Under the pieces are notes generated by a model that saw only the letters and a program-made list of their open reading frames with translations, made no database searches and had not been told where the DNA came from. 64,000 nucleotides of DNA from Chthoniobacterales bacterium (GTDB taxonomy: Bacteria; Verrucomicrobiota; Verrucomicrobiia; Chthoniobacterales; JACTMZ01). Location: assembly GCA_044371145.1 (NCBI GenBank), contig JBILUI010000001.1, forward strand, positions 3,497-67,496, given 5' to 3'. The translations under genes were made by a program, and so were the position numbers. Of the stretch, positions 42,973-62,287 are shown in pieces; the stretch's first letter is position 1; each line of letters opens with the position of its first letter.

Positions 42973-43001
42973 GGATAACGCAGCTTTTTTTCCGCCGGCG
43001 C

Positions 43002-44120: not shown

Positions 44121-44175
44121 CGTAACAGAGCCCCATTAAAGCACGAGCAAGTCGCCGACATGATGCAGTCGCGGT

Positions 44176-44293
44176 CAAACATAAGTTTGGGAAAATACCT
44201 TGTGCATTTTGAAGTAGGTGCCGCGGCGCTCGTGGGAAACGATGTAAAACGGGGTTTTTCCCAAAGAAATTCGAAAACAATATCGTTGATCAT
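44176..44293 (-). pseudogene. Relic 5-prime end of a second sulfotransferase (frameshifted and truncated)
   Basis: ATG at 44293 reads MINDIVFEFLWEK. After a 1-nt shift in the run GGGAAAAACCCC it reads KTPFYIVSHERRGTYFKMHKVFSQTYV-stop (TGA 44178..44176). This parallels MIDRLIFGILCKKTPFYVVSHERSGTHFMINTIFANAYV of the intact gene at 42972. Confidence 0.6.
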
Positions 44294-44303
44294 CGCCGAC
44301 CGT

Positions 44304-45209
44304 CTACCGCTTGCCAAAAGTATCCAGTCCTTTGCGGTAGAGAAAAACGCGCACGGCGCGGAGAAGCCAATCGAACGCAGCGCGGACGGATAAATACCAA
44401 AAATCGCGACGTAACGGTGAGCCCCAATAACGAATTGCTCGCCGCCGTCTGGCGGCACTGTATTCGGCAAATCCTTTGCCTGTTTTTGCAGCTGGGTGAT
44501 AGTAAGATCCCGCCAATACTTTATCCACATTGACAAACTCAGCCTTACTCGACAAGCGTATCCAGTAGTCGAAATCCATGATCAAGTGCAAGTCTTCGTC
44601 TAGCATACCTACTCGCTCGGTAAGTTCGCGCCTCCAAAAAATTGCTGGCTGATGCATCCGGTAAGGCTTCCAGGTTTCAAGCAGTCTTCGTCGACTTATG
44701 TATTGTCCCTTTAGAACCGTTGAGTCGCGCCCGTCGGTATGGACTCTCAGAACATCACCTACTATAGCCGCAGGTTTCGGCTTTCGACAGAAGGTGCTTC
44801 CAACGAACATTAGCGTGCCGGTAAAGTAGAAGTCATCACTGTTCAACCAGCAAACGATCTCGCCTGTTGCTCGAGCAAGTCCTTTGTTGATGGCATGGCT
44901 CTGACCCCGATCAGGTTTGCTTTCCCACCAATCCAGCCACGGCGAATAGTGTTCTAGAATAAGTGTGCTGTCGTCCTTGCTGCCTCCATCAACAACAAAA
45001 TATTCCAGATTCGGATATCCTTGAAGGAGGACCGACCGAATGGTTGTCTCCAAAAACTCTGCTTGGTTGAAGGAAGGCGTGATAACAGTGATTCTCGGCC
45101 AAGAGTAATTCGTCTCTTCCAGTGGCGCGGCTTCAGATACCCATGGCCAGCATTCGCTGTCATGAACGCCTAGCCTCAGCGGCTCTGGCAAACTACGGTG
45201 CGATGGCAT
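44304..45209 (-). CDS. Glycosyltransferase family 2
   Basis: ITVITPSFNQAEFL, FVVDGGSKDDS, DRGQSHAINKG and WLNSDDFY motifs, the same subtype as 20225..21094. Visibly lower GC than the bulk of the locus. ATG at 45209; the ORF-track TTG is at 45212. Confidence 0.88.
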   Translation of the reverse strand: MPSHRSLPEPLRLGVHDSECWPWVSEAAPLEETNYSWPRITVITPSFNQAEFLETTIRSVLLQGYPNLEYFVVDGGSKDDSTLILEHYSPWLDWWESKPDRGQSHAINKGLARATGEIVCWLNSDDFYFTGTLMFVGSTFCRKPKPAAIVGDVLRVHTDGRDSTVLKGQYISRRRLLETWKPYRMHQPAIFWRRELTERVGMLDEDLHLIMDFDYWIRLSSKAEFVNVDKVLAGSYYHPAAKTGKGFAEYSAARRRRAIRYWGSPLRRDFWYLSVRAAFDWLLRAVRVFLYRKGLDTFGKR

Positions 45210-45500
45210 CAATTCAGACGGTCGGCAATTGAGTAAAATAAGTCATGCTGTTAGAAGTTCGTTTAATGGCACCGCAGGAGAGGGATACAGATTCGGAGCG
45301 AGAAAGCGTCGCCGTCCAACAAAGCCGCCACACTTTTTGATGAAGCTGATATGCAAGAGGCGACGAAGTATTCATAGTTGCTGATGGCCACGCTGATGGA
45401 GGGACGTTTGCTCATCTCAAATACGGAATCGTAGATTTCAAGCTACGATTAATCCGATGCTCCATAAGCCGCCTCGGTTCTTGGACGCATCGATGCGGTT

Positions 45501-47878: not shown

Positions 47879-49273
47879 TTAGAACTGAAAGTAAATAAAG
47901 GCTGTGTCAGGCCCACCTTCGATAAAGGAAAGCAGCAGAAGAACCGCATAGAGAACGGGCTCGTATTTGCGGAAGAGAGCAGTTCTTGCCAACGGTGCGC
48001 AGAGATGCTGAAGCACAACCGGCAACGCATACACAACCGCTAGGACGTAATAGTATGGACCGCGGAAAGCAGCCCAAGGATTCTCCAGCCAGCCCTGTAA
48101 ATAGGCGGTGCTTTCCGCCCATCCGTTGACCTTGAAAAGGAGCCAACCCAAGCTTACGAGGGCAAAAACAGCCGCAATCCGCAGAAAGCGCATGGGGAAG
48201 CTATGAAGCAGGCGTGCCACTCTGGGTATCGGGCCTAATAGGGTGCGAAAGGCTCTCTCGAAGCAAAGCAGGATTCCGTGATAAAGTCCCCAGACGAGAA
48301 AGTTGATGCTGCTCCCGTGCCACAAACCGCCAAGGCCCATCACGACAAGGAGATTGAAGTAGGTTCTCGATGAGCCCCGGCGACTCCCGCCCAGCGGTAT
48401 GTAGAGATAGTTCTTCAGCCAAGTTGACAGCGAAATGTGCCAGCGGTGCCAGAATTGGGCGAAGGATGCCGACAAGTAGGGCAGCCTGAAGTTCACGGGT
48501 AGCCGGTAGCCAAACAAGAGCGCCAACCCGATAGCCATGGCCGAGTAGCCAAAGAAGTCGGCGTAGATCTGGAAGCTAAAAAGACCCAACAAAAACAGAC
48601 GGTCAATGCCACCCAGAGTGCTTATGGAGTCGGCTGTCTCCATGTAAACAGTGAACTCGTTGAGGTTATTGGCACAAAAAGCCTTCATGAAAAAACCGAC
48701 CACAATCCATTTGGCGGCTGCGATGAAATCCACATCATCTATCCGCTTCGGCTCGATCTGCGGAAAGAAGCCGCGGGCGCGCGTGATGGGACCGCAAACC
48801 AGCTGTGGAAAAAAGAGAATATACAGCATGGTTTGTCCCGCGGACGGCGGAGAAACAGCCGTGCGATTCTTGGTGTAGTCGACAAGCAGGCTGATGTTGT
48901 GAAAAACGAAAAAAGAGATACCGATGGGCAATGGCAGCATGACAAAGTAGTCGAAGAAGAAAACTCCTGTTCCCGCGAAATTCAGAGGATCGACGAAAAG
49001 AAATTTGTATTTGAAAAAAGCCAACAGCGATAAGTTGGCGACCACACCGGCAATCATCCACGGAACACCGGACTTCATCGCGCCCCACAGACACGCCTGG
49101 GTGGCCAGCAGCGCGGTCAGCAAAAGAGGCAAAAATCTGGCATCGGCCCAGGCAAAGAAGAACATGCTGGCCATGATCAGCAGCGGCACCTGCATGTTTC
49201 GGAAGACAGGAGCATAATAAAGCGCGAAGACCGCAACCACGAACACGGCGAATTGCCACGAGAGAAAATTCAT
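47879..49273 (-). CDS. MBOAT family O-acyltransferase, copy 3
   Basis: FFGYSAMAIG, FWHRWHISLSTWLKNYLYIPLGGSR, GLWHGSSINF and C-terminal FIYFQF. Lower GC than copies 1 and 2. Confidence 0.92.
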   Translation of the reverse strand: MNFLSWQFAVFVVAVFALYYAPVFRNMQVPLLIMASMFFFAWADARFLPLLLTALLATQACLWGAMKSGVPWMIAGVVANLSLLAFFKYKFLFVDPLNFAGTGVFFFDYFVMLPLPIGISFFVFHNISLLVDYTKNRTAVSPPSAGQTMLYILFFPQLVCGPITRARGFFPQIEPKRIDDVDFIAAAKWIVVGFFMKAFCANNLNEFTVYMETADSISTLGGIDRLFLLGLFSFQIYADFFGYSAMAIGLALLFGYRLPVNFRLPYLSASFAQFWHRWHISLSTWLKNYLYIPLGGSRRGSSRTYFNLLVVMGLGGLWHGSSINFLVWGLYHGILLCFERAFRTLLGPIPRVARLLHSFPMRFLRIAAVFALVSLGWLLFKVNGWAESTAYLQGWLENPWAAFRGPYYYVLAVVYALPVVLQHLCAPLARTALFRKYEPVLYAVLLLLSFIEGGPDTAFIYFQF

Positions 49274-49303: not shown

Positions 49304-50287
49304 TCAGCAACACACCCGCTTCTTGGCGATTAGATCGCGCAATTCGAAGCGCACCGGACAGCTGCTACGGAAAAGCCAGCCAACAATATGGCCCCACCCC
49401 CATCGGCGCCCCGCCCGCAGGTTTTTGCGCGTGGCTCGCCACCAACCCCGCCAAGTGCCGTCGAACTGACTCCACCAGACGACGTCCATTTGACGGTAAA
49501 CCATGCCCTGAAGTTCCGGGTAACGCTGCCGCATGACCCGACTTCCAAGCAGAGAGATTAGCCTGTCGATCCTGAGTCGCTTCTTTTCTTCCAAGCCAAG
49601 CGGCGACCAGATTCCAGCAGAGTGCTGCCGGTAGGCGCAGCCATCGAAGTCCTCGAAGCCCAACAGACCGTGTTCGGTCACGAGAAGATCGAACATGAAA
49701 TCATAGGGAGTCCGGAGGTAATAGTCGGGCGTTTCGCCCATAACACACGACTTGCGAAACACAAGCGACGCCGTCGGGTATCCTGATCGCAACTCGCGGA
49801 GACAATCGGCCTGCGTGTATTCGCCCCGGTAAGCAAGTCCGTCCCAGACAAAGGGAATGATATTCCCGCCCTCGTTGACGGCATGACCCCGGTGAAAGAC
49901 AGCGGCCCAAGCCGGTTCGGACTGCAGTCGGCGCACTTGACGCTGCAATTTGGATGGCTCGGTCCAAAAGTCATCTCCTTCGCAGAGGGCTATGAATTTT
50001 CCGCGAGCGGAGCGGAATGTCTCGATCCACATGGAGCCGAGTTCCCCGCGTGAATAGCGGTTCGAAGCCTGACGATTCCACCGGAAGCGATCCGGATGTG
50101 ACTCCGCATAAAAACTCAACAGGCCCGGTGTATTGTCGGTCGAAGCGTCGTCGTTGACTATGATCTCGAACGGAAAATCCGTCCTTTGGGCCAAAAAGGA
50201 GTCGACGGCCTGGCGGATGAAGCGCTCGTGGTTGTAAGCAAAGCACACCACGCTGACAAGCGGAGCGGTCCCGGACCGAGTGATCAT
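49304..50287 (-). CDS. Glycosyltransferase family 2 (paralogue of the C-terminal half of 55385..57493)
   Basis: APLVSVVCFAYNHERF, IIVNDDASTDNT and CEGDDFWT motifs. I chose the ATG at 50287 (MITRSGTAPL). The ORF-track start 50488 overlaps the DegT gene. Confidence 0.85.
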   Translation of the reverse strand: MITRSGTAPLVSVVCFAYNHERFIRQAVDSFLAQRTDFPFEIIVNDDASTDNTPGLLSFYAESHPDRFRWNRQASNRYSRGELGSMWIETFRSARGKFIALCEGDDFWTEPSKLQRQVRRLQSEPAWAAVFHRGHAVNEGGNIIPFVWDGLAYRGEYTQADCLRELRSGYPTASLVFRKSCVMGETPDYYLRTPYDFMFDLLVTEHGLLGFEDFDGCAYRQHSAGIWSPLGLEEKKRLRIDRLISLLGSRVMRQRYPELQGMVYRQMDVVWWSQFDGTWRGWWRATRKNLRAGRRWGWGHIVGWLFRSSCPVRFELRDLIAKKRVCC

Positions 50288-50319
50288 GTCTGGAAATCGG
50301 AGCTTTCCACCGCGGACGC

Positions 50320-51459
50320 TTAACTTAGCAGGCATCTGATGAGCCCGCAGATGCGTTCGACATGAGAGCAATCGACGGATTGCCCGGTGGGCAAAACGAT
50401 CACGCTTTCGGCGACAGCCTCGGAATGCACCAGATTGTTGGACCGCCCGGACAATTCGGTCCGATAAGGCTCCATGCGATGGCAGCACGGCCAGAAATAC
50501 CTTCGCGCGATGACGTTTTCCGCATGCAGCGCGTTGACGATCTCGTCGCGCGATTTCCGACAGACTTTGGGGTCAACTTCCAACACAACGTATTGAAAAT
50601 TGCTCATGTCCTGCGGGTTGTATCGCAGGAGCGAAAGACCCGGAAGATTCCGCAAACCGTCGCGGTAAGCCTCGTAGTTGGCACGGTTGCAGGCGACGAT
50701 CTCTTCCATTGCTTCGAGACTGGTCAGCCCCATGGCTGCGCCAATCTCGCTGAGTTTCCCGTTCACACCCAGACCCACAACATTGTCAAAGCCCGCGAAC
50801 CCGAAATTTCTCATCAAACGCATGCGGGCGGCCAGATCGTCATGGTTGGTCACAATCGCACCGCCCTCGAAACAATTGACGAATTTGGTCGCGTGAAAAC
50901 TGAACACTTCGCATTGCCCGAAGTGGCCGATCATGGTCCCGTCGTGGGAGCAGTGGAAGGCGTGCGAGGCGTCATACATGACTTTAAGTCCATGCCGCTG
51001 CGCCAGGAGATCAATCGCGTTGCTTTCGCAGGCCCTCCCCCACAAATGGACACCGACGATACCCGACGTCCTGTCCGTGATCAGCGGTTCAATGGCACGC
51101 GGATCGATGTTGTGAGTGCGCGGATCGATGTCGGCAAAAACCGGAGTCAGGCCCAGCCAGCGCAAAGCGTGGGCGGTCGCGACGAAGGTGTAGGACGGAA
51201 CAATGACCTCGCCGGTCAAACCGATGGCGCGCGCGGCAATTTCCAAGGCGACCGTTCCGTTGCAGACCGCCACGCAATGCTTGACCCCGATAATCTGCTG
51301 AATTCTGGATTCGAATTCCTGCACCAAAGGCCCGTGATTGGACAAAACACGCCGATCGAGAATTTGATCGATGCGCGCGTGCAAAGTTGCACGGTCCCCT
51401 ATGTTCGGTCGCCCGACATGAAGGGGTTCGGCAAAAATCGGTTTCCTTGGAGTCTTCAA
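50320..51459 (-). CDS. DegT/DnrJ/EryC1/StrS family sugar aminotransferase
   Basis: PLP-lysine context EVFSFHATKF, plus CNGTVALEIA and DASHAF. The TTG at 51459 forms a TTGA overlap with the upstream stop and gives (M)KTPRKPIFAEPLHVGRPNIG. The ORF-track ATG starts (51543/51516) overlap the upstream gene by 60 nt or more. Confidence 0.9.
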   Translation of the reverse strand: MKTPRKPIFAEPLHVGRPNIGDRATLHARIDQILDRRVLSNHGPLVQEFESRIQQIIGVKHCVAVCNGTVALEIAARAIGLTGEVIVPSYTFVATAHALRWLGLTPVFADIDPRTHNIDPRAIEPLITDRTSGIVGVHLWGRACESNAIDLLAQRHGLKVMYDASHAFHCSHDGTMIGHFGQCEVFSFHATKFVNCFEGGAIVTNHDDLAARMRLMRNFGFAGFDNVVGLGVNGKLSEIGAAMGLTSLEAMEEIVACNRANYEAYRDGLRNLPGLSLLRYNPQDMSNFQYVVLEVDPKVCRKSRDEIVNALHAENVIARRYFWPCCHRMEPYRTELSGRSNNLVHSEAVAESVIVLPTGQSVDCSHVERICGLIRCLLS

Positions 51460-52208
51460 TTCCGCTTCCCGCGCTTCGGTGCCACACGCCTGCCGGCGCC
51501 CCAGCAGCACCCGCATTTGCCCGTTGCCGGCGGTCGATACCACGGATCCTCGGCGGACGAAGCTCTCAAAATTCTCGCCGGATTCCCGGCGACCACCTTT
51601 TCGTCACCCACGTCGCGGATCACCACACTGCCGGCACCGACCATCGAACCGCATCCTATCGATACGCCCGGGGCCAAAACAGCGCCGGCGCCGACCCACG
51701 AGAAGCAGCCGACGTGGGCACCACCACAAAGCACGGCACCCGGGGAAACGTGGGCGAAACAGCCGATCGAGCAGTCATGCTCCACGATCGCGCCGGAATT
51801 GATGATGGTCCCGCGTCGCACGACCGCGCGCGCCCCCAACACGGAGCAAGGGCCGGCCACAACGCACTCTCCGGCCTCCGCGCTTGCGGCCACGACTGCC
51901 GAAGGATGGATCGCACGGCTACATCGCAACCCTGCCCGGCGCGCTTTGGCTTCGGAACGGAATCGACCCAATGAATTGCCCATGGCCGGCAGAAAAAGGG
52001 CGTCTGGACCGCCGGCTGCCGCCAGTGCTTTCTTCCAACCGTGGTGAACATGCTCTTCGGAAGCTGGCGCTGTATTCTCATCAACGCCAAAGAAAATACG
52101 CGCCCCGGGAAAGACCAGCCGCGCAATCTCCGCCACGAAACGGGCATGGCCCCCGGCGCCCCAGAGAAGAACCGGGAGCGACTCATGGTGAATTTTGCTC
52201 CGCTTCAT
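51456..52208 (-). CDS. NeuD/PglD-type LbH sugar N-acyltransferase
   Basis: N-terminal Rossmann-like LLWGAGGHARFV followed by hexapeptide repeats (GAIVEHDCSIGCFAHVSPGAVLCGGAHVG..VGAGAVLAPGVSIG..VGAGSVV). The ATG at 52208 forms an ATGA overlap with the upstream stop. Confidence 0.85.
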   Translation of the reverse strand: MKRSKIHHESLPVLLWGAGGHARFVAEIARLVFPGARIFFGVDENTAPASEEHVHHGWKKALAAAGGPDALFLPAMGNSLGRFRSEAKARRAGLRCSRAIHPSAVVAASAEAGECVVAGPCSVLGARAVVRRGTIINSGAIVEHDCSIGCFAHVSPGAVLCGGAHVGCFSWVGAGAVLAPGVSIGCGSMVGAGSVVIRDVGDEKVVAGNPARILRASSAEDPWYRPPATGKCGCCWGAGRRVAPKRGKRN

Positions 52209-53119
52209 GACTCCGCCAGCTTCGGGTTGAGCCATGTCTGGACACCGTCTTGGAAGTCTATCTCCCCGAATGGTGTGGCCTGTCTGGAACGCGTCGCAAA
52301 GTCGTTGATCTTGGTCCAACCGAGCGCGCCGAAGCATCGCCTCAGACCTTCCTCTATGTCACTTCCATGAGTGCCGATGTGGACTCTCTTGACCAGTCTG
52401 TCCAGTGACTCGCGCGAATCCTCGACAACCTCCAGTTCCGCACCCTGGATATCCATGTCCAACAAGTCGACCGGGCCCGTTTTGGCCAAGACGTCCGGAA
52501 GATTGACCACCCTGACTTTCGCGAGGTGCCGCTTTCCGTCGATCCGGTGCCTCCACCTCTTGAGCGCAGCCCGCAGCGCGTGAAAACCGTGGGATCTCAA
52601 GCTGGGAACTGCATCTTCGCGATACATGGCCGCGCCATAAGTCTCGCGCGGCTCGCCGACCTCAAACCAGGCACGACGGCCACGGGTGCGAGCGCCAACC
52701 GCTGCTTCAATGAGCACGTGTGCGGAGGGATCAATTCCGTTGTCGATGAAGTGTTGGGAGATATAGGAAAAGCGGGAGGGCTCCGCCTCGACGGCGACAA
52801 GGAGGGGCTGTACATCGGATGTCTGCCTGAGCGCCGCAGCTGCAGCGACAACCCACGCTCCGTAGCCGGCGCCCAGCTCGATCATGACAAAACGTCCGCG
52901 AGATGAATGGACCGCGCTGAGGATCTCAACCCATTCAAAATACGATTCGTTGAACTCCGGAAGATCACCAGGTTTTATTTTAACGCGCCAGCGTGACATA
53001 TCCATGAAGGATTCGCGTGTCTTCACCCCGAGTCCGTTCACAATGAGCCCTGGCTCCTGCGGGCGGAGCCTGAAGTCAAAGTGTGAAAATACAGGGTGGT
53101 GAGCGGGTGGCTTTTCCAT
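52205..53119 (-). CDS. FkbM family methyltransferase
   Basis: MIELGAGYGAW (motif I) and VDLLDMDIQGAELEVV, typical of FkbM. Confidence 0.8.
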   Translation of the reverse strand: MEKPPAHHPVFSHFDFRLRPQEPGLIVNGLGVKTRESFMDMSRWRVKIKPGDLPEFNESYFEWVEILSAVHSSRGRFVMIELGAGYGAWVVAAAAALRQTSDVQPLLVAVEAEPSRFSYISQHFIDNGIDPSAHVLIEAAVGARTRGRRAWFEVGEPRETYGAAMYREDAVPSLRSHGFHALRAALKRWRHRIDGKRHLAKVRVVNLPDVLAKTGPVDLLDMDIQGAELEVVEDSRESLDRLVKRVHIGTHGSDIEEGLRRCFGALGWTKINDFATRSRQATPFGEIDFQDGVQTWLNPKLAES

Positions 53120-53161: not shown

Positions 53162-53884
53162 TTATAAGCGACACGCACGCTGGATATCCACGTGGACGCA
53201 GGAGGCTCCGACGCGAAGCGCCAAATTGTAGCCGCGGTCCTTCATGAAACTTGCTATGCTTGAGTCTTGCGTTCCGAAGTCCTCCACAAGCACTACAGTC
53301 GGGCGGAAACGATCCCAGTTGTTGGAGCGAAGCACTTCGAAATCATGCCCCTCGCAATCGATGTCAAAAAGATCGATGGGGCGTCCGGGCTCCCAGTGCT
53401 CTCCAAGTAAGGCGCCCAGAGTAACGGGACGCATCACATCCCCCTTTTCCGCACCCGCGTGACCGGTGATGCGGTCGGAAGGCCTACCCGCTACGGAAAC
53501 AGCCAACTTTTCGTCACGGTCGGAAACTGCAGCGCAGACAAACTTGTCGCGGGGCCGCAAGAGACTGAAAGAAGCCTCATGCTGCAGATTCATGTCCACA
53601 ACAAGCCCGGACCCCCCGCGCTGATAAAATCTGTAAGTGTTTGAATGCTCGATCGGATGAAAACATCCGACATCGACGTAGGAATACGGCCGCTTGCAAC
53701 CGGCTTCATCAAGCAGCTTTTCCAAGACAAGATCCTCACCGCACTGCGAAAAAGACAGGCGGGCAAAAGGAAGACAGTGTGCAGGCCACTGGCTGTAGCG
53801 GACATGACAGGTCGCAGAAAGCAACCTCTGCGCCAACGATTGCAGCCGTTTTTGCAGAAACTGAGGAAGGTGCATGAGAATCAA
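53162..53884 (-). CDS. FkbM family methyltransferase
   Basis: FSQCGEDLVLEKLL, YVDVGCFHP and IDLFDIDCEGHDFEVL. The TTG at 53884 forms a TTGA overlap with the wzt stop; an ATG at 53875 is also possible. Confidence 0.8.
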   Translation of the reverse strand: MILMHLPQFLQKRLQSLAQRLLSATCHVRYSQWPAHCLPFARLSFSQCGEDLVLEKLLDEAGCKRPYSYVDVGCFHPIEHSNTYRFYQRGGSGLVVDMNLQHEASFSLLRPRDKFVCAAVSDRDEKLAVSVAGRPSDRITGHAGAEKGDVMRPVTLGALLGEHWEPGRPIDLFDIDCEGHDFEVLRSNNWDRFRPTVVLVEDFGTQDSSIASFMKDRGYNLALRVGASCVHVDIQRACRL

Positions 53885-55101
53885 ACCGAAAAATCCGCGG
53901 AAAGAATCGAAAAAGACTTCGGGAGAAAGTCGACAATCGGAGGGCGGGACACCTCATGGTAGCGATCGACTCGGCCGTTCGGCCAGAGGACCCAGCTCTC
54001 ACGTGCCCCGGACTTGATGAGCAGATGCCGTGCCCTGTCGGCATGAAACTGGGACAACTCGGGCGTGATCGCGTGGACGACGATATCGGGAGCAGCGCTC
54101 CAGGAGGGTTCCGTCCGCAGCGTCTGCATGCGCGCGTCCGAAACCCAACCCAAGTCGGCCACCACACAACCCTCGGATGTCTCAACCGGGGCATTGAGCA
54201 CCACCTGGCCTTTTCCCAAGCGGCGCGAAAACAGACCGGCCAATTTTCCCAAAAAAAGCCCGGTCCTGCTATCGGGCAGCCCGGGTTCGCCGGCCTGGGA
54301 GTCCGTCTTGAGGTGCAGCGACTCGAGATAGCGGTCGGTCACTTCGCGAGCGGTTCCTTCGGCGACCAAACGCCCCTCTTCGAGCAGAATTCCCTTTGTG
54401 CAGAGCTTAAGCACGCTTTGGCTCGAATGGCTGACAAACAGGATCGTAACCCCGGAATTTTTGATCTCGTCGATTCGGTTGAGGCACTTCTCCTGAAACT
54501 TGGCATCGCCGACAGCGAGCACTTCGTCGAGTACAAGTATTTCGGGCTCCAAATGAGCCGCCACGGCGAAAGCGAGGCGCACGCGCATACCGCTAGAGTA
54601 TCGTTTCACCGGCGTGTCCATGAAATCGGGTATCTCGGCAAATTCGGCAATTCGCTCGTAGCGCTCCTGAATTTCTTTGTCTCTCATGCCCAAAATGCTG
54701 CCATTGAGAAAAACGTTTTCCTTGCCTGTCATCTCGTGGTTGAAGCCGGTGCCCACTTCGAGAAGGCTGGCCACACGGCCCTTGATTTTCGCCGTTCCGG
54801 TCGTCGGGGAGGTAATACGCGAAAGCAGCTTCAGCAATGTTGATTTGCCGGACCCATTGCGTCCCATGACACCAACGATGTCGCCCTGTTCGATCTTGAA
54901 GCTCACGTCTTTCAGCGCCCAGAAGTCGTAGGGGGTCGGTAGGCGATCTGTCGCATGCTCGAATACGGACGAATGAGGATCCGGCTTGCCAAGCTTGCGA
55001 GCCACCCAGCTTTCGATTTGATCGACGAGCATTCGCCGGTTGATCACACCAAGGCGGTATTTTTTGGAGAGATTTTCGACTTTGATGACGGTGTCGGACA
55101 T
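53881..55101 (-). CDS. wzt: Polysaccharide ABC exporter ATP-binding protein (Wzt/TagH-type) with atypical C-terminal domain
   Basis: Walker A GRNGSGKSTLLK, signature YSSGMRVRLAFA, Walker B ILVLDEVLAVGD. About 150 extra C-terminal residues follow (see finding on Uma2-like resemblance). Confidence 0.92.
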   Translation of the reverse strand: MSDTVIKVENLSKKYRLGVINRRMLVDQIESWVARKLGKPDPHSSVFEHATDRLPTPYDFWALKDVSFKIEQGDIVGVMGRNGSGKSTLLKLLSRITSPTTGTAKIKGRVASLLEVGTGFNHEMTGKENVFLNGSILGMRDKEIQERYERIAEFAEIPDFMDTPVKRYSSGMRVRLAFAVAAHLEPEILVLDEVLAVGDAKFQEKCLNRIDEIKNSGVTILFVSHSSQSVLKLCTKGILLEEGRLVAEGTAREVTDRYLESLHLKTDSQAGEPGLPDSRTGLFLGKLAGLFSRRLGKGQVVLNAPVETSEGCVVADLGWVSDARMQTLRTEPSWSAAPDIVVHAITPELSQFHADRARHLLIKSGARESWVLWPNGRVDRYHEVSRPPIVDFLPKSFSILSADFSV

Positions 55102-55384: not shown

Positions 55385-57493
55385 TCAGTCATCGCCTGTG
55401 TCGCGGGTGTCGACCAGGCGGCGGAAGCAACGGAGTGGTTTGGTAATCTTCCAAGAGAGGCTTTGCTTCATCGACTGCCATCCTGTGGCCTCTCTTTTGA
55501 TCTTGCGTCTCACCATTTCGAGGTGGCCGCGAATGCACTGCCCGTAAACTCGTCGCAGTTCATCATCCAGCAGCAGTTCGTTGAACATTTCGTAGTTTCG
55601 GAGGTAGCGGCCGACTTTGCTGCCGCCAATCCAGGCACCGGAACCGTGCTGACGATAGACAGACATGTTCGCATCCAAGACACCCAAATCACCGTGTTTG
55701 GTGATAGCTATATCCAGAGTAGTATCGCGCGGTCGGTTCAGAAGGTAGGCAGGCATGTCCTTGAGCGCAGACCGGCGGAAAACGAGAGAAGCTGTCGGGT
55801 AGCCGCTGAGCAACCACTCCACGCAATCTTGCCGGGTGTAGCGTCCGGCTTGCCGGTTTATACAGGAATCCATGAGAACTTTGCCGCTTTCATCAATCAC
55901 CCTAGCGTCATGGATACAGCCGACGCAGTCGGGATTCGTGCGCAAAAAGTCGATCTGCTTCTGAAGTTTGTGCGGGCTGGTCCAGTAATCGTCACCCTCG
56001 CACACGGCAATGAACTCGCCCCGGCAATGCGCCAGACAAGAAAGCATGGGCGATTCTCCACGCTCGCGCGAGTTCGTTGCGTAGAAAACCGGACGGATGA
56101 TTCTCCGGTTAGTTGCAGCGTGTCGCCGGATAATCTCATCCGTTCCATCGGTGGATGCGTCATCTTGCAAGACGATCTCAACGCGGAAATCCGTCTCCTG
56201 CATGAGAAAACCGGCGATGGCGTCGCCGATCATGTGCGCCTGGTTGTAAGTGTAGCAGCAGATGCTGACGAGGGGAGCTGTCCCATCCGACCAGTCGTGA
56301 CTCGTGATCGCAACAGGCGCCCCTAGTTGGGGGGCGGCATCAGGAGGATCGATCCGGGAGCCGACAATCCGCGCGCCGAGCGCTTTGTGAACAGCCTCGC
56401 AAACCCGGCGCACTGCTTCCTCGCTGATGGCTTGACCGGTGGGCAAGACAATCACTTTGGCCGCGACCTGTTCAGTCGCCGGCAAGCTTGTCTCAGAGCC
56501 TACACGGGCCGAGAGATAAGGCTCCATCCGATGGCAGCCCCGCCAAAAATACCGACGGGCGAGAATGCCTTCGGCGTGCAATGCCGCGACTAACTCATCG
56601 CGGCTCATCATGCAGTGCGCAGGGTCGACTTCGAGGACAATATATTGAAAATTCCCCTGCTGTTGCGTGTCATAGTCCAACACACGAATCCCGGGGAGAT
56701 CCGTCAGCAGCTGACGATACAGCTCGTAGTTGCGCCGGTTCTTCTCCACGAACCCGTCCATCGACTCGAGGTTGCACAGTCCCATCGCCGCGCAAACTTC
56801 CGGCATTTTCGCATTGATGCCCGGGCCGACAACCGAGTCATGGCCGTCGAAACCGAAATTTCTCATCAGCCGCATCTTGTCGGCCAGCGCGTCGTCGTTG
56901 GTGGTGATGACACCGCCCTCGAAAGTGTGCACGAATTTCGTTGCGTGGAAACTGAACACCTCGCAGTCGCCGAAGTTGCCAACCATCGTGCCGCCGCGCG
57001 AGCACCCGAAGGCATGCGACGCGTCATAGATAACTTTGAGGTCGTGTTGCCGCGCGATCCCTTCGATCGCCGCCGTGTCGCAAGGAGTTCCCCACGCATG
57101 GACACCGACCACGGCTGACGTGCGGGGCGTGACAGCATGCGCGATCTTCACGGGATCGATGTTGTGCGTCGCCGGACCGATGTCGACAAAGACAGGTTCC
57201 AATCCGATCCATTCGAAGGCATGCGCCGTGGCCACGAAAGTGAAGCTCGGCATGATCACCTCGCCCCGCAGCCCGAGCGCCTTCGCCGCGATCTGCAATC
57301 CAAGCGTTCCGTTGCAAACCGCTACCGCGTGCGGCACACCCAAAGTGTCGCAAATCTTGCGTTCGAATTGCTGAACAAGAGGTCCTCCGTTCGTCACCGG
57401 GCGCGGCGCCAGCAGATCTTGCACCCGCTGAAGATAAGCTCTCTCGTCGGGCATGTTGGGCAAACCGACGTGGAGTTTGGTCGCAGGTCTCAT
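55385..57493 (-). CDS. Fusion protein: DegT-family sugar aminotransferase (N) + GT2 glycosyltransferase (C)
   Basis: The first ~375 aa carry CNGTLGLQIA, DASHAF and EVFSFHATKF. After a linker come APLVSICCYTYNQAHM, IVLQDDASTDGT and CEGDDYWT. Each half aligns with the separate genes at 50320..51459 and 49304..50287. Confidence 0.88.
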   Translation of the reverse strand: MRPATKLHVGLPNMPDERAYLQRVQDLLAPRPVTNGGPLVQQFERKICDTLGVPHAVAVCNGTLGLQIAAKALGLRGEVIMPSFTFVATAHAFEWIGLEPVFVDIGPATHNIDPVKIAHAVTPRTSAVVGVHAWGTPCDTAAIEGIARQHDLKVIYDASHAFGCSRGGTMVGNFGDCEVFSFHATKFVHTFEGGVITTNDDALADKMRLMRNFGFDGHDSVVGPGINAKMPEVCAAMGLCNLESMDGFVEKNRRNYELYRQLLTDLPGIRVLDYDTQQQGNFQYIVLEVDPAHCMMSRDELVAALHAEGILARRYFWRGCHRMEPYLSARVGSETSLPATEQVAAKVIVLPTGQAISEEAVRRVCEAVHKALGARIVGSRIDPPDAAPQLGAPVAITSHDWSDGTAPLVSICCYTYNQAHMIGDAIAGFLMQETDFRVEIVLQDDASTDGTDEIIRRHAATNRRIIRPVFYATNSRERGESPMLSCLAHCRGEFIAVCEGDDYWTSPHKLQKQIDFLRTNPDCVGCIHDARVIDESGKVLMDSCINRQAGRYTRQDCVEWLLSGYPTASLVFRRSALKDMPAYLLNRPRDTTLDIAITKHGDLGVLDANMSVYRQHGSGAWIGGSKVGRYLRNYEMFNELLLDDELRRVYGQCIRGHLEMVRRKIKREATGWQSMKQSLSWKITKPLRCFRRLVDTRDTGDD

Positions 57494-57544
57494 AAACCTC
57501 TTTTTCTTATTGCCGCTGAGATGAGATACCGAAACACGCTACGC

Positions 57545-58210
57545 TCATATGGTCACCGAACGAGCCGGCACGCCGAAGACGGTCGATCCCGCCGGAACAT
57601 CGCGCGCGACCACGGACCCGGCTCCTACCGTTGCCCCGTCGCCGATGCGCGCGCCGGGAAGGATACTCGCATGCGGGTGAATGGTGACCCCGTCTCCAAC
57701 GATGACGCCACCACCGGCGAAAACAAAGGCGCCGACGTGGCAGCATTTGCCGAAACGCACATCGTGGCCGGCGGTCACATGTGCCGTCAGAAAAGTGTCA
57801 GCGCCGATGGAGACATCGCACGAAACAACGCAATACGGGCCGACCACGGCGCCGTCGGCCATTTCGACACCTCCGCCGATTTTGGCCGACGGTTCGCGCA
57901 AGACGGCAAACTTCGCACCGCGGCCACGCAACATGTCCGCGTATTTTCGACGATCGACCGAATTACCGATGGCGCAGACGAAAAGATCGTTCTCGCGCGG
58001 CCGGTAAAGCTGGGGCGTGCCGATGACGGGCGCTCCTACTGGGTCAATTCCGGGCCGGTCATCCAGAAATCCGGCAAGCTGCCAAACACAGCGTTCTCCC
58101 TCCGCCGATTGGATCCCGGCGGCCAAGTCGCGCACCTCGCGACCAAAGGCGCCCGCGCTCACGATGATGAGATTTTTCTTCACCGCAACGGCTGCACGAG
58201 ACCTTTCCAA
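57545..58210 (-). CDS. NeuD/PglD-type LbH sugar N-acyltransferase
   Basis: KKNLIIVSAGAFGREV followed by hexapeptide repeats (GPYCVVSCDVSIGADTFL..VGAFVFAGGGVIVGDGVTI..IGDGATVGAGSVV). TTG at 58210; a GTG at 58183 ((M)KKNLIIV) is an alternative start. Confidence 0.85.
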   Translation of the reverse strand: MERSRAAVAVKKNLIIVSAGAFGREVRDLAAGIQSAEGERCVWQLAGFLDDRPGIDPVGAPVIGTPQLYRPRENDLFVCAIGNSVDRRKYADMLRGRGAKFAVLREPSAKIGGGVEMADGAVVGPYCVVSCDVSIGADTFLTAHVTAGHDVRFGKCCHVGAFVFAGGGVIVGDGVTIHPHASILPGARIGDGATVGAGSVVARDVPAGSTVFGVPARSVTI

Positions 58211-58214
58211 AAAC

Positions 58215-59261
58215 TCAGACCTCGATAATTGGAGGACAAACCACCGGTCCGACTTCGCAAGCCAAGGTTCCCCATGAAAGCCCCACTCCGAACCCGCAGA
58301 GAAGAAGGCGAAGCCCTCCGTTCAGGAGTCGCGCGCCGAGTTGATCGACCATGGTGAGCGGGATCGTTGCCGAACTCGTGTTGCCGAAATCGGCCAGCGT
58401 GCCCGGACATTTTCCAGCATCCAACCTCAGCGATTTAACGATGGTATCGTTGATCAGCCGGCTGGCCTGGTGAAAAACGAAAGCATCGACTGAATCCGCC
58501 GACCATCCCGCGGCCTCCAAGGCAGCGCGCACGGCAGCGGGAACGACACGAACGGAGAAATTGAAAACGTCGGCACCCTTCATCTGATACTGCGTGTCGA
58601 AATATATCCGTCCGAGAACATCTTCCTTTGATGGAAGCGCCATCCCGTCCAAGCCGGGCTTGCCGCCGGAGCGCCTCTCCATGATGTAGTCCCATCCGCT
58701 CCCGTCGGTATGGAGCGAAAAGTGCATGGGCGCGGCCGCAGCGCGGCGCTCCAAGCCGACCGCAACTGCCGCATCGCCGAAGAGAGGCGCCCGAGGCGAC
58801 GCGGGATTCGGCTTTCCTGCTGCATCGCCGACGACAAGCAAAACCTTCGATGCCTCCGACGGGGCCAATAAACTCCCCGCGACGAGCATCCCATAGGGAA
58901 AACCGGAACACCCCAGATTGATGTCGAAAGCGGCACAGTCGGTCGAAAGACCGAGACGATGCTGCAGGATGCAGGCAGTGGACGGGTAGGCCACGTCGCC
59001 TGATTGCGTGACCACGACCAAAGCCTCGACTTCACTCTTATCCCAAACTAAGTCGGCGAGAATGCGCTCTGTGGCAAAGCGGGCGAGGTCGGAAAAGAAC
59101 AAGTCCGGCGGGCAGATACGCCTACGCAGAACACCGGTCGCGGACGAAAACCTCCGCCGCGCCTCCGGAGACTCGTAACCAGACTCCTCCACCGTCTCCA
59201 CGCTGGCAGGAACCGCCGCGCAGAGGCCGGCTAAATGGATGCCATGAAGAATGCTCTGCAC
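58215..59261 (-). CDS. 3-oxoacyl-ACP synthase III (FabH-like KAS III)
   Basis: Catalytic Cys in DINLGCSGF, His in FVFHQAS, Asn in FGNTSSATIP. The GTG start shares one nucleotide with the ACP stop. Confidence 0.88.
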   Translation of the reverse strand: MQSILHGIHLAGLCAAVPASVETVEESGYESPEARRRFSSATGVLRRRICPPDLFFSDLARFATERILADLVWDKSEVEALVVVTQSGDVAYPSTACILQHRLGLSTDCAAFDINLGCSGFPYGMLVAGSLLAPSEASKVLLVVGDAAGKPNPASPRAPLFGDAAVAVGLERRAAAAPMHFSLHTDGSGWDYIMERRSGGKPGLDGMALPSKEDVLGRIYFDTQYQMKGADVFNFSVRVVPAAVRAALEAAGWSADSVDAFVFHQASRLINDTIVKSLRLDAGKCPGTLADFGNTSSATIPLTMVDQLGARLLNGGLRLLLCGFGVGLSWGTLACEVGPVVCPPIIEV

Positions 59262-59497
59262 TAAAGTTTGCGCTGCACGAGCGCGATTAGATCCTTCAGA
59301 GAGCAGCAGGATTCCAACTCTTCACCCGAGACCTGCACGCCATAATCAGCGTAAACCTCCGCAACAAGCATGACAGCAGTTAACGAGTCCCAGCCCTCCA
59401 AGTCGCGCAGAACGCTGGTCAGAGCCAAACCCTGAGGAGCTTGTGCAAAGGCATTGTGCACCGCCGCGAAAAACTTTTCCTGATCGATCTCAGCCAT
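59261..59497 (-). CDS. Acyl carrier protein
   Basis: 78-aa acidic protein with the phosphopantetheine-attachment context LEGWDSLTAVML. Confidence 0.85.
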   Translation of the reverse strand: MAEIDQEKFFAAVHNAFAQAPQGLALTSVLRDLEGWDSLTAVMLVAEVYADYGVQVSGEELESCCSLKDLIALVQRKL

Positions 59498-59625
59498 GAT
59501 ATTCCAGCTCGTTCAATTGACTCGCGGAAAAACGCCTGAGAGGCTTGCAAGCATATCAGAATGCCGAGTCAGTTGGCTCGGAGACGTCTGCACTTGCCAC
59601 GCGCCCGGGGCGCGTCCCCCTGCGC

Positions 59626-59714
59626 TCAAAGGATGTCCACGCAGGTCCGCTGCGTCCGGTTGAACATAACCAAGCCCACCAGCACGACGGCGATGCTGAC
59701 AAAGGAGCTGAAAC
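59626..59714 (-). pseudogene. Orphan duplicate of the wzm 3-prime end
   Basis: The minus strand encodes ...SSFVSIAVVLVGLVMFNRTQRTCVDIL-stop. The last 23 codons are identical in protein to the end of wzm (60456..60524). The DNA differs at 12 of those codons, all synonymously (hand alignment). Confidence 0.75.
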
Positions 59715-59732
59715 GCAAGCAGCAGGAAAACA

Positions 59733-60167
59733 TCAGGGCGTCAGCAGTTCCACGCGCAGACCTTGGGACCGGAACAAATCAAAATCCGCGTCACGCGTAA
59801 CCCAAGTGCAACCGTGCTCGAAGGCAAGCGCTGCATGCTGGGCATCCGCCACCAGTTTGCCTTTGGCCGACACAGACTCGCAAAATGACCTCATTATGGT
59901 CCAATGCCGCTCGTCGGGTCCGAGCACAACACGACCGCGTGCAGCTAAGATCGAATCGATCACCGCAAGGGCCTGGGAAAGTGGAGTGGGCCTTGGCTGA
60001 AAGCCAGGATGTGTTACCACACGGACGAAGGACGCTGCCACCAAGAGCGAAAGCGCGAAAGGTTCGCCACCATTGACCAGACGCTCCATCCACTCCCGGT
60101 AAAAATCATGATCCGGGTCCTCGCGACGATGCGCGTAGACCAGAGTGTTCACGTCGGGCATGAGCAT
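59733..60167 (-). CDS. vapC: PIN-domain toxin VapC (type II toxin-antitoxin)
   Basis: 144 aa. Acidic PIN residues are in the expected contexts (MPDVNTLV, ...DAQHAALA, VTRDADF). It follows a small antitoxin ORF after a 5-nt gap. Confidence 0.88.
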   Translation of the reverse strand: MLMPDVNTLVYAHRREDPDHDFYREWMERLVNGGEPFALSLLVAASFVRVVTHPGFQPRPTPLSQALAVIDSILAARGRVVLGPDERHWTIMRSFCESVSAKGKLVADAQHAALAFEHGCTWVTRDADFDLFRSQGLRVELLTP

Positions 60168-60172
60168 CCTTC

Positions 60173-60391
60173 TCAGCGCCCATCATCGCGCAACGCGGCC
60201 AACTGCGACGGGGTTTGATGGATACCCGCAGGCTCGCCGAAAACAGGCATGGAGAACTGCTCCCTCCCCGTCCCGCTCCGGCGGTCGGAAAACAGGTGCT
60301 GTCGCAGGGCGGTGTTGACCAGATCGCTCAAGGTTTTGCCGGTGTTGGCCGCCTCGCGCTTGGCATGGCGAAAGACTTGATCGTTCAACAC
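60173..60391 (-). CDS. vapB: VapB-type antitoxin (ribbon-helix-helix)
   Basis: LNDQVFRHAKREAANTGKTLSDLVNTALRQHL is an RHH pattern. The GTG at 60391 is the first canonical start, but the stop-free in-frame upstream codons read KRITLV, which would complete the RHH beta-strand. The true start is therefore uncertain. Confidence 0.75.
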   Translation of the reverse strand: MLNDQVFRHAKREAANTGKTLSDLVNTALRQHLFSDRRSGTGREQFSMPVFGEPAGIHQTPSQLAALRDDGR

Positions 60392-60411
60392 GAGGGTTAT
60401 TCTCTTACAAA

Positions 60412-60425
60412 CATACGTACGTATG
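60412..60425. promoter_or_regulatory. Perfect 14-bp palindrome CATACGTACGTATG, candidate VapB operator
   Basis: The palindrome lies 21 nt upstream of the vapB start. A minus-strand TTGACA lies at 60441..60436, just after the wzm stop. RHH antitoxins typically autoregulate through promoter palindromes. Confidence 0.4.
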
Positions 60426-60455
60426 CGGACAGCGTTGTCAAGCGGCCTGGCTTCC

Positions 60456-61313
60456 TCAGAGAATATCGACGCACGTCCTCTGCGTCCGGTTGAACATAAC
60501 GAGGCCGACCAACACTACCGCGATGCTGATAAAAAAGCTGACAACGATTTGCCAAAGATAGACGGTGCCATGGCCCATGAAGGCGAAGCGGAACGCCTCG
60601 ATGATAAAAACCATCGGATTGAGCGCGTAGACCCAGCGCCAGTTTTCCGGGACCATACTCAGCGGGTAAACCACGCAGCTGGCATACATCCAAAGCTGCA
60701 TGAAAAAGCTGAGCATGATTTGCAGGTCGCGAAAACGGGTGGTCACGGCGGAGACCATGCAGCCGACGCCCAAGCCGAGCGCGGCCATTTGCAACAAAAG
60801 CACGGGCAACACGACGATGCGCCAACCCATGGCGATGTCCGCCCCTTGGTGGAAATAATACACGTAAAAAATGAGAAAAAGCACCATTTGCATTCCGAAG
60901 CCGATGAGATTCGCAATAAGTTGAGAGATAGGCACGACCAGTCGTGGGAAGTAGACCTTGTCGAACAATCCGCGGTTGGAACTAAAGGTGGCCGCCGTAT
61001 TGGTGACGCAGTTGTTGAAGTAGCCCCAGCAAACGGTGCCGGCCAAAAAGAAGAGCAGGGGGGGTATTTCTCCGGTGGAAATCTTGGCGATCTTGTTGAA
61101 AACGAGGGTGAACATCAGGCTGGTGAACAGGGGCTGAATCACATACCAAGCCGAGCCAAGGATCGTCTGCTTGTAGCGCGAGACAAAATCGCGATGCACC
61201 AGGCGCATGATAAGTTCCCGGTATTCCCAAATTTCGCGGAAAGGGATATGGAGCAGTTTGTGCTCGGACGTGATGACCGTCGTCCACTGCGGGTTTTGGA
61301 CTGTTGAATTCAT
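60456..61313 (-). CDS. wzm: Polysaccharide ABC exporter permease (ABC-2 type, Wzm)
   Basis: 285 aa. N-terminal REIWEYRELIMRLVHRDFVSRYKQTILGSAWYVIQPL is typical of Wzm/TagG/KpsM permeases. About six hydrophobic segments. Confidence 0.92.
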   Translation of the reverse strand: MNSTVQNPQWTTVITSEHKLLHIPFREIWEYRELIMRLVHRDFVSRYKQTILGSAWYVIQPLFTSLMFTLVFNKIAKISTGEIPPLLFFLAGTVCWGYFNNCVTNTAATFSSNRGLFDKVYFPRLVVPISQLIANLIGFGMQMVLFLIFYVYYFHQGADIAMGWRIVVLPVLLLQMAALGLGVGCMVSAVTTRFRDLQIMLSFFMQLWMYASCVVYPLSMVPENWRWVYALNPMVFIIEAFRFAFMGHGTVYLWQIVVSFFISIAVVLVGLVMFNRTQRTCVDIL

Positions 61314-61568: not shown

Positions 61569-62084
61569 TCAGAGCTTCATGAAGCGGATGAGCCAGGGGA
61601 GAATCTTGCGCCCTTTGTCGAGCCAGTGCTTGAGGCGGTCGATGCGGTCGCGGGTGGCGCGGCGTTCTTTGGGCGGCAACTCTGCGAGCGATTCCTCCAT
61701 GCGCCGGATCCTTTCCGCTGCCATATCGATGCGAGGCTGGAGCTCGTCCTTGATGAAGGCCGTCGCGAAACGGCTGAGCTCCAGGTCGGCCACATAGTGG
61801 TCGCGACGATCACCACGCTCGTAAACCACCCGCACCGCCCCGAAAGAACGCAGGAGCTTCAGGCCTTGGCTGGCCGCGCCCAGGCTGATGCCGAGCCGGC
61901 CCATGATCTCGTCCATGGCCATCGGTTTGGGGGCCACAAAAAGCAGCCCGTAGATTTCACCAACCGATTTGGGCAATCCTATGAGGCGCAAGAAGTTGAT
62001 AAACATCTCGATCGCCTCGACCTCCAACTCGGTCAGGCGACTCTTGTCTTCCTCCACAAAAAGCGGCGGCGGCACAGTGCGCAT
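61569..62084 (-). CDS. GbsR/MarR-type winged-helix transcriptional regulator
   Basis: Winged-helix region PMAMDEIMGRLGISLGAASQGLKLLRSFGAVRVV followed by a helical C-terminus. I chose the ATG at 62084 (MRTVPPPLF). The ORF-track start 62141 extends into an A/T-rich promoter-like stretch. Confidence 0.72.
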   Translation of the reverse strand: MRTVPPPLFVEEDKSRLTELEVEAIEMFINFLRLIGLPKSVGEIYGLLFVAPKPMAMDEIMGRLGISLGAASQGLKLLRSFGAVRVVYERGDRRDHYVADLELSRFATAFIKDELQPRIDMAAERIRRMEESLAELPPKERRATRDRIDRLKHWLDKGRKILPWLIRFMKL

Positions 62085-62287
62085 CTTATAGGGCACGATT
62101 TCAGGAGCTTCAAGAAAAAATGAAATAATTGATACGCCCACGCACCGGTTTATCGAAGTGGGAACGAGAATCCTAAAGCTGTTGCCTTTGCCCTTGCCCG
62201 GCCGCGCGGAGAATTGCCTGATGGTCTTGTGCGGCGGTGGAGCCTCAACAGAATCCTACTGGGAGCGGGATTCCCGGAAAAACAACA

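Follow-up and report, generated by a model that had tools for sequence, protein, structure and literature searches.

Minimal mobile elements of Neisseria (a term that appears in PMC8627216) and recombination hot spots are known from between conserved genes. Restriction-modification (RM) systems have been found inserted with long target duplications of 30-420 bp, without mobility genes (Nobusato et al. 2000; Furuta, Abe & Kobayashi 2010, PMC2853133), a mode of insertion which a 2013 review ascribes to RM systems only (PMC3874152). Type II toxin-antitoxin (TA) systems also move between genomes; their movement has been credited to known mobile elements, with no TA-specific route given (PMC2654758, PMC3874152), and these two reviews describe no TA example of insertion with long target duplication. 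Homology-facilitated illegitimate recombination (HFIR) has been proposed for orphaned 3' regions in Rhs, contact-dependent inhibition (CDI), and Vibrio type VI secretion system (T6SS) effector-immunity arrays (PMC5361080), and in E. coli lacZ experiments a single crossover of circles placed the insert between two copies of the anchor, a duplication of 109-950 bp (PMC3240628). Here we describe a 64,000-nt stretch of a Chthoniobacterales genome (hereafter the window) in which a vapBC TA cassette is bracketed by two diverged copies of the 3' end of wzm, a polysaccharide-export gene: the tail of the intact, resident wzm on one side, and an orphan tail, directly behind vapC, on the other. This repeat is probably the scar of a vapBC insertion with long target duplication, for which the insertion of RM gene complexes is the closest precedent. 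Recurring scars in related freshwater bacteria suggest a means by which such cassettes spread with neither transposase nor integrase.

The wzm-tail repeat and the vapBC cassette

All genes in the wzm-vapBC-wzt part of the window are located on the minus strand. Resident wzm (60456-61313) encodes an intact ABC-2 permease of 285 aa with an ABC2_membrane domain (PF01061, E 1.2e-23, 84 bits) and a partner Wzt in the locus, and full-length homologues at 74-93% identity number in the hundreds. A repeat search identified a direct repeat of its tail (59625-59711 vs 60455-60541; 87 nt, 83% identity, spacing 830), and self-BLAST of the window gave 59625-59715 vs 60455-60546 (92 nt, 82.6%, E 1.2e-18), confirming an earlier note, made by reading the letters alone, that about four-fifths of the nucleotides match. 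The left copy consists of the last ~31 codons and stop of resident wzm (60456-60549), and the right copy is the orphan tail (59626-59720). In register with both stops, the final 23 codons of the two encode the same peptide (SIAVVLVGLVMFNRTQRTCVDIL), again as that note had read them; of its statement that 12 differing codons are all synonymous, the synonymy holds and the count does not, given that the 12 nucleotide differences fall in 11 codons. When 12 random substitutions were simulated in these 69 nt, not one of 200,000 runs kept the peptide, and 7.9 codons were altered on average. Further upstream, over ~7 codons (to ~60549), the homology is degraded, with one 1-nt indel, an F->S change, and I in place of V. 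The note's view that this is not a fresh target-site duplication is supported. Six independent metagenome contigs (L001, L002, L004, and L007-L009) reproduce the arrangement at ≥99.98% identity, and it is therefore no assembly artefact. One additional contig (L003, 11028-11416) carries an identical wzm seemingly without vapBC; it is a fold-back in which vapB is joined to an inverted vapC, and was set aside as probably an assembly artefact.

The cassette between the two copies is minimal and co-oriented, extends from its own promoter region to the vapC stop (~720 bp), and begins 14 nt past the wzm stop. These 14 nt (60442-60455; GGAAGCCAGGCCGC) constitute the rest of the original wzm-downstream spacer. 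The left end of the cassette (60392-60441) contains, ahead of vapB, a TTGACA -35-like hexamer (60436-60441) and a perfect 14-nt palindrome (60412-60425; CATACGTACGTATG), which is probably the VapB operator. This end is conserved in two other carriers (L119 and L122) and in L120, an unlinked 70% vapBC homologue in unrelated context, without wzm or orphan, which was used to define the cassette ends. A simple sigma-70 scan called no minus-strand promoter, and a terminator scan gave terminator-like matches at chance level, with no convincing terminator within the cassette.

The toxin gene vapC (59733-60167) encodes a 144-aa protein of the PIN-domain ribonuclease family, which matches TIGR00028 over residues 1-138 (127.5 bits, cut-off 73.6) and PF01850 (57.6 bits vs 23.6, E 2.5e-15). 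The PIN-type acidic residues are all present in its translation (~D5, E44, D102, and D124), and we take these, from knowledge of the family, to be the catalytic positions. The small upstream gene vapB (60173-60391; 72 aa, GTG start), whose stop lies 5 nt ahead of the vapC start, was assigned by position and by sub-threshold matches to PF09957 VapB_antitoxin (18.1 bits vs 23.4) and DUF6364; an NCBIfam search with VapB gave no match. The pair presumably forms an ordinary type II TA addiction module, in which the PIN RNase is neutralised by VapB and VapB, as in the family at large, presumably also represses the promoter at the palindrome. Both ATG starts found in the vapB of relatives (MYVCMRTTLVL..., in L119, L122, and L120) are mutated in the window (ATG->ACG and ATG->AAG), where a T->I change is also found (60389-60425); a GTG/TTG start remains and the MRTT N-terminus is removed. 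This loss is present in all identical metagenome contigs, and may impair DNA binding by the antitoxin.

Empty sites, discordant divergence, and the orphan tail

The window was compared with relatives among freshwater Verrucomicrobiota metagenome-assembled genomes (Chthoniobacterales/Terrimicrobiaceae). In L131 (Wzm 88%), wzm is followed after 47 bp by genes for acyl carrier protein (ACP), KASIII, an acetyltransferase, DegT, GT2, Wzt, and FkbM, with neither vapBC nor orphan; its wzm tail and ACP gene are collinear with the orphan and ACP gene of the window, and its tail is 88% identical to the window orphan vs 77% to the window resident tail. In L118 and L117, an intact wzm leads directly into a methyltransferase region, and the orphan of the carrier L132 with its downstream sequence is 88% identical to the wzm tail of L118 and its downstream sequence over 1.7 kb, the alignment beginning within the orphan. 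A single empty-site target is matched by both repeats in the window vs L131 (67/87 and 73/87), in L132 vs L118 (80/87 and 67/87, flanks collinear), and in L122 vs L117 (78/87 and 65/89), the empty-site genomes being 12-22% divergent and not of the same species. The tails of L131, L122, and L117 match the orphan at 88-91% identity, whereas the resident tail matches it at 83%, which bears out the earlier suggestion that the source of the orphan was a functional wzm allele different from the resident copy.

The same cassette, vapC-orphan junction, and orphan tail recur in three other lineages, namely in L119/L132 (Wzm 91-92%, VapC 89%) and in L121-L125. By alignment, the stretch between the vapC stop and the wzm-derived sequence (59721-59732, limits approximate) is common to all of these and the window. 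The genes downstream of the cassette comprise the ACP block in the window, a converging gene in L119, and methyltransferase genes in L132 and L121-L125. In L121-L125, the sequence past the orphan stop (GGAAGCCGAGCCGCC) repeats the 14 nt past the window's resident stop, so that the duplicated unit extended beyond the stop and comprised ~94 nt of wzm, the stop, and ~14 nt.

Divergence between the window and L119 is sharply discordant along the locus. Synonymous divergence (dS) reaches 1.30 for wzm and 1.00 for the GbsR/CudC-like regulator gene (61569-62141, minus strand), vs 0.17 for vapB and 0.19 for vapC. In the other pairs, dS of wzm is 1.26 (window vs L122) and 0.93 (L119 vs L122), and that of vapBC 0.41-0.62. 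Between the window and L119, the proportion of synonymous differences (pS) in wzm is 0.43-0.81 in every 30-codon segment up to the stop; the 23 wzm-derived orphan codons, with a pS of 0.48 and a proportion of non-synonymous differences (pN) of 0.07, resemble host wzm, and the 12 junction codons (36 nt), 19% different, resemble neutral cassette sequence. The young tract thereby runs from just past the wzm stop to the 36-nt junction. This fits a history in which each orphan would largely be its own host's displaced tail and vapBC would have been exchanged horizontally. The empty-site relatives, and a vapBC far younger than its flanks, agree with the earlier proposal that the genes between the copies came by recombination in the wzm tail. 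The same repeat without vapBC between its copies, which the earlier note had named as contrary evidence, was looked for in ~130 related loci and did not turn up.

Two of the carriers also reveal where exchange has taken place. Positions 1-2155 of L132 and 3824-5978 of L119 are 98.8% identical over 2,153 nt, with 18 mismatches, of which 14 lie in the 3' half of wzm (L132 878-1250) and three more ≤28 nt past its stop; the ~780 nt between the vapB promoter and orphan codon -8 match perfectly. From that codon on, the two are unrelated, with different tails, stops, and downstream genes. Recombination breakpoints accordingly lie in both tail copies, which are active crossover zones. While both are metagenomic contigs, a k-mer chimera behind the break is unlikely, since the shared sequence ahead of it holds an orphan-specific N->H change.

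In the window, orphan codons -24 to stop are pristine and codons ~-31 to -25 are degraded. Its 72 nt consist almost entirely of states found in functional alleles of relatives, implying that the orphan was displaced or refreshed in apparently recent times. A near-identical donor allele was not found, and among the ~90 wzm tails first compared none is closer than the resident copy; a distance matrix offered too few sites in the 72-nt tails to be informative on crossover placement. A wzt fragment was looked for at the window-type joint, and the single suggestive motif is TTTCCATGC, kept at the L122 junction, which resembles the wzt ribosome-binding site and start. Over ~55 nt past the orphan stop (window 59571-59625, L119 5979-6036) weak homology is found, and the genes beyond differ; the window segment holds a GC-rich palindrome (ACGCGCCCCGGGCGCGT).

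These data also bear on how the two copies came about. If the wzm tail had been duplicated in tandem in situ, with vapBC dropped in and the copies diverging in place, possibly with gene conversion, direct repeats flanking an insert would be the expected product, and the inclusion of 14 nt of spacer in the duplicated unit of L121-L125 would be accounted for. A non-functional copy should, however, gain non-synonymous changes and indels, as the orphan of L121-L125 did, whereas the window orphan has none in 23 codons. It is also closer to the alleles of other lineages than to its neighbouring copy, and differs from the latter at 12 of 72 nt, so that no recent conversion took place. We therefore accord in-situ duplication very little probability, and continue to favour an insertion that brought together two alleles.

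Together, the junction and the orphan tail form a 35-codon open reading frame (ORF; 59626-59733, a gene-finder call). In the window, L119, and L132, its ATG overlaps the stop of vapC (TGATG). The overlap had been recorded correctly for the window; standing as a gene is another matter. The ORF might encode a functional small membrane protein, ex. a third component coupled to vapC by the overlap, with selection giving rise to the synonymous pattern. Gene callers annotate it, it is intact with TGATG in the three genomes, and, across the 23 tail codons, the window and L119 show few amino-acid differences (pN/pS ~0.14). In L121-L125, however, the orphan has decayed, with no ATG (TGATT), two frameshifts, and several amino-acid changes; the tail of L132 reads RIWVDIL (T->I and C->W), and that of L119 carries N->H at a residue that is invariant in Wzm otherwise. 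The first 12 codons evolve nearly neutrally, with 4 amino-acid changes between the window and L119, a family search with the ORF found no match, and tails derived from the hosts would fully predict the pattern. A functional ORF is accordingly highly improbable, and because the L121-L125 lineage lost the ATG and carries two frameshifts, we judge the ORF to be a likely by-product or relic and not a gene.

The wzm-wzt junction and independent scars

Among relatives, wzt is the usual immediate neighbour of wzm. Across 63 related loci with a recognisable wzt, the spacing between the two genes is ≤50 bp in 21, 51-200 bp in 14, 201-700 bp in 22, and >700 bp in 6. Mid-size gaps hold small genes, and all inserts at the site are co-oriented. 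They include a 23S-rRNA-IVP/four-helix-bundle gene in 17 loci, some frameshifted (L012-L014, L039, L042, L043, L045, L046, L056, L077, L079, L080, L082, L083, L094, L102, and L116), a PDDEXK_3 (GxxExxY) gene in four (L023, L033, L065, and L096), and an 81-aa gene without known family in three (L052, L053, and L078). Given this variety of small co-oriented genes in the mid-size gaps, the wzm-wzt junction of Chthoniobacterales is an insertion hot spot. No wzm-tail duplication accompanies the IVP, PDDEXK_3, or 81-aa inserts, and a motif scan (CVD[ILMV][ILMV]*) combined with short-query BLAST detected no second wzm tail in ~105 related loci outside the window's own strain; further cases of duplication were found through targeted look-ups only.

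The same type of scar recurs independently with two other vapBC pairs. In L126/L127 (1150-2401 in L126), which have the closest KASIII (80%), wzm is followed by a pair encoding a MazE-like protein of 75 aa and a PIN protein of 131 aa, then by 58 nt homologous to the window wzt leader and first six wzt codons (MPETVI), and next by a second copy of the final 150 nt of wzm, which shares 92% identity with the resident one and shows 10 synonymous and 3 non-synonymous codon differences. Beyond the duplicated tail lie a sulfotransferase gene and then the ACP block. The wzt/wzm joint is located in a 7-nt microhomology (CGTCATC), which points to a putatively illegitimate joint formed on DNA from a wzm-vapBC-wzt donor. 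In L038/L084 (2060-2798 in L038), a third vapBC pair, MazE and PIN (124 aa), is present past wzm, and is followed, at a TGATG overlap, by an orphan fragment with the last ~40 degT codons (PF01041 positions 327-360, above threshold).

The L126 joint could be read in the opposite sense, with the downstream block (ACP-KASIII-acetyltransferase-DegT/GT2) as the newcomer in a wzm-vapBC-wzt locus, wzt serving as anchor, the left joint being illegitimate, and the donor wzm tail arriving as a passenger. The wzt leader and six wzt codons ahead of the orphan are what a break in wzt would be expected to leave; moreover, the closest Wzm relative (P0002, 93%) has wzm-wzt-FkbM... with neither vapBC nor the ACP block, and small inserts are common in the wzm-wzt spacer. 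However, wzm is adjacent to the ACP gene without a TA pair in L131 and with a different one in L126, which marks this as the host's own arrangement. The window and L126 are alike in identity for wzm (79.6%) and for the block (80.6%), the same cassette, junction, and orphan precede other, unrelated downstream genes, and the young segment is vapBC, not the flanks. Arrival of the block, which the earlier note had offered beside arrival of vapBC, is on this evidence distinctly unlikely, and its idea that vapBC stabilises an adjacent acquired block fares no better, seeing that the same cassette precedes different gene sets and the ACP block occurs without vapBC.

It is well known that some elements restore the 3' end of the gene they target, and a 21-nt identical core (GTTATGTTCAACCGGACGCAG) lies inside the wzm-tail repeat, as it might if the tails were attL and attR of an integrase-mobilised element carrying a surrogate gene end. 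We rejected such a site-specific element as extremely improbable: neither an integrase or other recombinase nor any other mobility gene is present in the 830-bp unit or nearby, similarity runs past the core on both sides as coding-constrained sequence, and the extent of the repeat varies between lineages. The independent case in L126 differs in repeat length (150 nt) and in its joint, and has a microhomology. A transposon or insertion sequence was also rejected, there being no terminal inverted repeats around 59733-60441, a duplication of ~90-150 nt (not 2-14 bp), and no transposase.

Downstream of the orphan, the window contains the block found in the same order directly behind intact wzm in L131, and regarded as host-native (55385-59497, minus strand), which family searches resolve into ACP (59261-59497), KASIII (58215-59261), a PglD-like acetyltransferase (57545-58210), and a DegT::GT2 fusion (55385-57493). 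The fusion is a single 702-aa ORF in this set, and DegT and GT2 are separate genes in L130/L131. The ABC ATPase gene wzt (53881-55101; family search and synteny) comes next, and beyond it are two FkbM methyltransferase genes and further sugar-modification genes. Paralogous acetyltransferase-DegT-GT2 sets (49304-52337 and 55385-58210; DegT 57-59% aa identity) flank wzt-FkbM-FkbM. Two neighbouring GT2 genes without other relationship (43002-44120 and 44304-45212, minus strand) share the same 15-residue end, RVFLYRKG(M/L)DTFGKR*, the corresponding nucleotides (42999-43061 vs 44301-44363) being 84% identical with mostly synonymous differences; a low-GC stretch (~50% GC, 43800-45400) lies beside this shared tail. 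Three MBOAT-family O-acyltransferase paralogues (26126-27214, 32775-33818, and 47882-49273; ~38% aa identity) suggest that the 64-kb window belongs to a very large, multi-module surface-polysaccharide region. An Rfam search of the whole window gave no matches.

Route of entry and comparison with described systems

Under the insertion that we favour, the cassette and a wzm tail would enter by RecA-type recombination inside the conserved 3' end of wzm. For the molecular entry, as a circle or in linear form, we infer two routes: a circularised fragment with one wzm tail and vapBC that entered by a single crossover, or a homologous anchor in wzm combined with a microhomology join on the other side, as in HFIR. 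Either would keep wzm intact and push the old tail downstream, where the orphan would remain contiguous with the host's native ACP-KASIII-acetyltransferase-DegT/GT2-wzt genes. The two tails would represent two functional alleles, each under purifying selection before the event, and would for that reason differ by synonymous changes only. The cassette would later have passed between genus-level-diverged Chthoniobacterales lineages through the same homology, after which the orphan would decay neutrally and also offer a crossover point for the swapping of downstream polysaccharide genes. Surviving outcomes would be only those with wzm intact and the operon co-oriented.

Several observations weigh against this account. 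In the window and L119, the resident tails have diverged in a host-like, not a cassette-like, manner (9/72 nt differ, all synonymous); as a donor tail entering with the cassette should give cassette-like resident tails, host-like ones would require crossovers very near the stop or a later exchange of wzm. The ~55 nt of homology between the window and L119 past the orphan stop are not predicted by the simplest model, and, with all empty-site relatives 12-22% divergent, the polarity of insertion vs deletion depends on parsimony. Neither a circular form nor a same-strain empty site was seen. The canonical vapB start codons are lost in the window, and toxin activity of the pair is a prediction. 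Finally, every comparison is based on short contigs from metagenomes and on stretches of 23-50 codons.

A bolder extension, which we put forward tentatively and consider unlikely, is that vapBC cassettes are autonomous, recombination-dependent mobile units that home to the conserved wzm tail, insert through the host's homologous recombination with a long target duplication by which wzm stays intact, leave again as circles by way of the repeats, and invade further strains with the carried tail as homology arm, the toxin freed on loss biasing serotype-swapping crossovers to the orphan over resident wzm. If this were true, a persistent, selfish TA module would be shaping a hot spot at which polysaccharides are switched.

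The insertion with long target duplication, as preferred here, would provide a recombinase-free route for TA movement, in which the cassette travels with a copied tail of its target gene, the essential exporter is preserved, a diagnostic orphan tail is left behind, and genus-level moves are achieved via host recombination. It would extend this mode of insertion from RM to TA systems, and it supplies a search signature, namely a small addictive gene pair with, behind it, the 3' end of the upstream gene in a second copy that has diverged synonymously. It also singles out the wzm-wzt junction in Chthoniobacterales as a hot spot occupied by small selfish genes.

With respect to its cargo, the locus resembles VapBC type II TA systems (TIGR00028/PF01850) in a VapC above the curated NCBIfam threshold, a small antitoxin gene 5 nt upstream, and a palindrome in the promoter region, and departs from them in a VapB whose matches to known antitoxin families all stay below threshold and which is without the ATG starts seen in relatives. 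Similar to the minimal mobile elements of Neisseria, a fixed wzm-wzt site carries different small cassettes per strain, exchanged by homologous recombination; unlike in those, both homology arms in the window come from one gene, owing to the tail duplication.

The features by which RM insertions with long target duplication were recognised (PMC2853133) are a complete gene pair of <20 kb without mobility genes, a flanking direct repeat of >30 bp, and alignment of both repeats to one empty-site target. Here, the insert is ~720 bp and comprises promoter, vapB, and vapC; the repeats measure 87-94 nt in the window, ~108 nt in L121-L125, and 150 nt in L126; and both copies align to one target, though in empty-site genomes with the divergence given above. 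In both systems a small addictive gene pair has inserted without transposase or integrase, between direct repeats of tens to hundreds of bp which can overlap the 3' end of a gene and vary in length by event (46-423 bp in the RM insertions). The cargo here, however, is a type II TA pair, the repeats are 83% identical rather than near-identical because the copies derive from different alleles, and the cassette has spread across lineages (dS 0.17-0.19 vs 1.0-1.3).

As in the orphaned 3' regions for which HFIR was proposed (PMC5361080), a conserved upstream gene acts as anchor, the displaced old 3' part remains downstream, and L126 has the expected microhomology joint; in contrast to these, the piece pushed aside here is a housekeeping-exporter tail without cargo of its own, and the newcomer restores the same protein sequence, with no changed toxin tip. 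The Campbell-type crossover of the lacZ experiments (PMC3240628) likewise leaves an insert flanked by the anchor duplication, with both copies chimeric at the crossover, whereas a natural circle would in this case have to arise by excision through the repeats or by microhomology end-joining. What sets the locus apart within the known kind of insertion is the TA cargo, the gene-tail target, the recurrence at one hot spot, the spread across lineages, and the orphan as a recombination junction.

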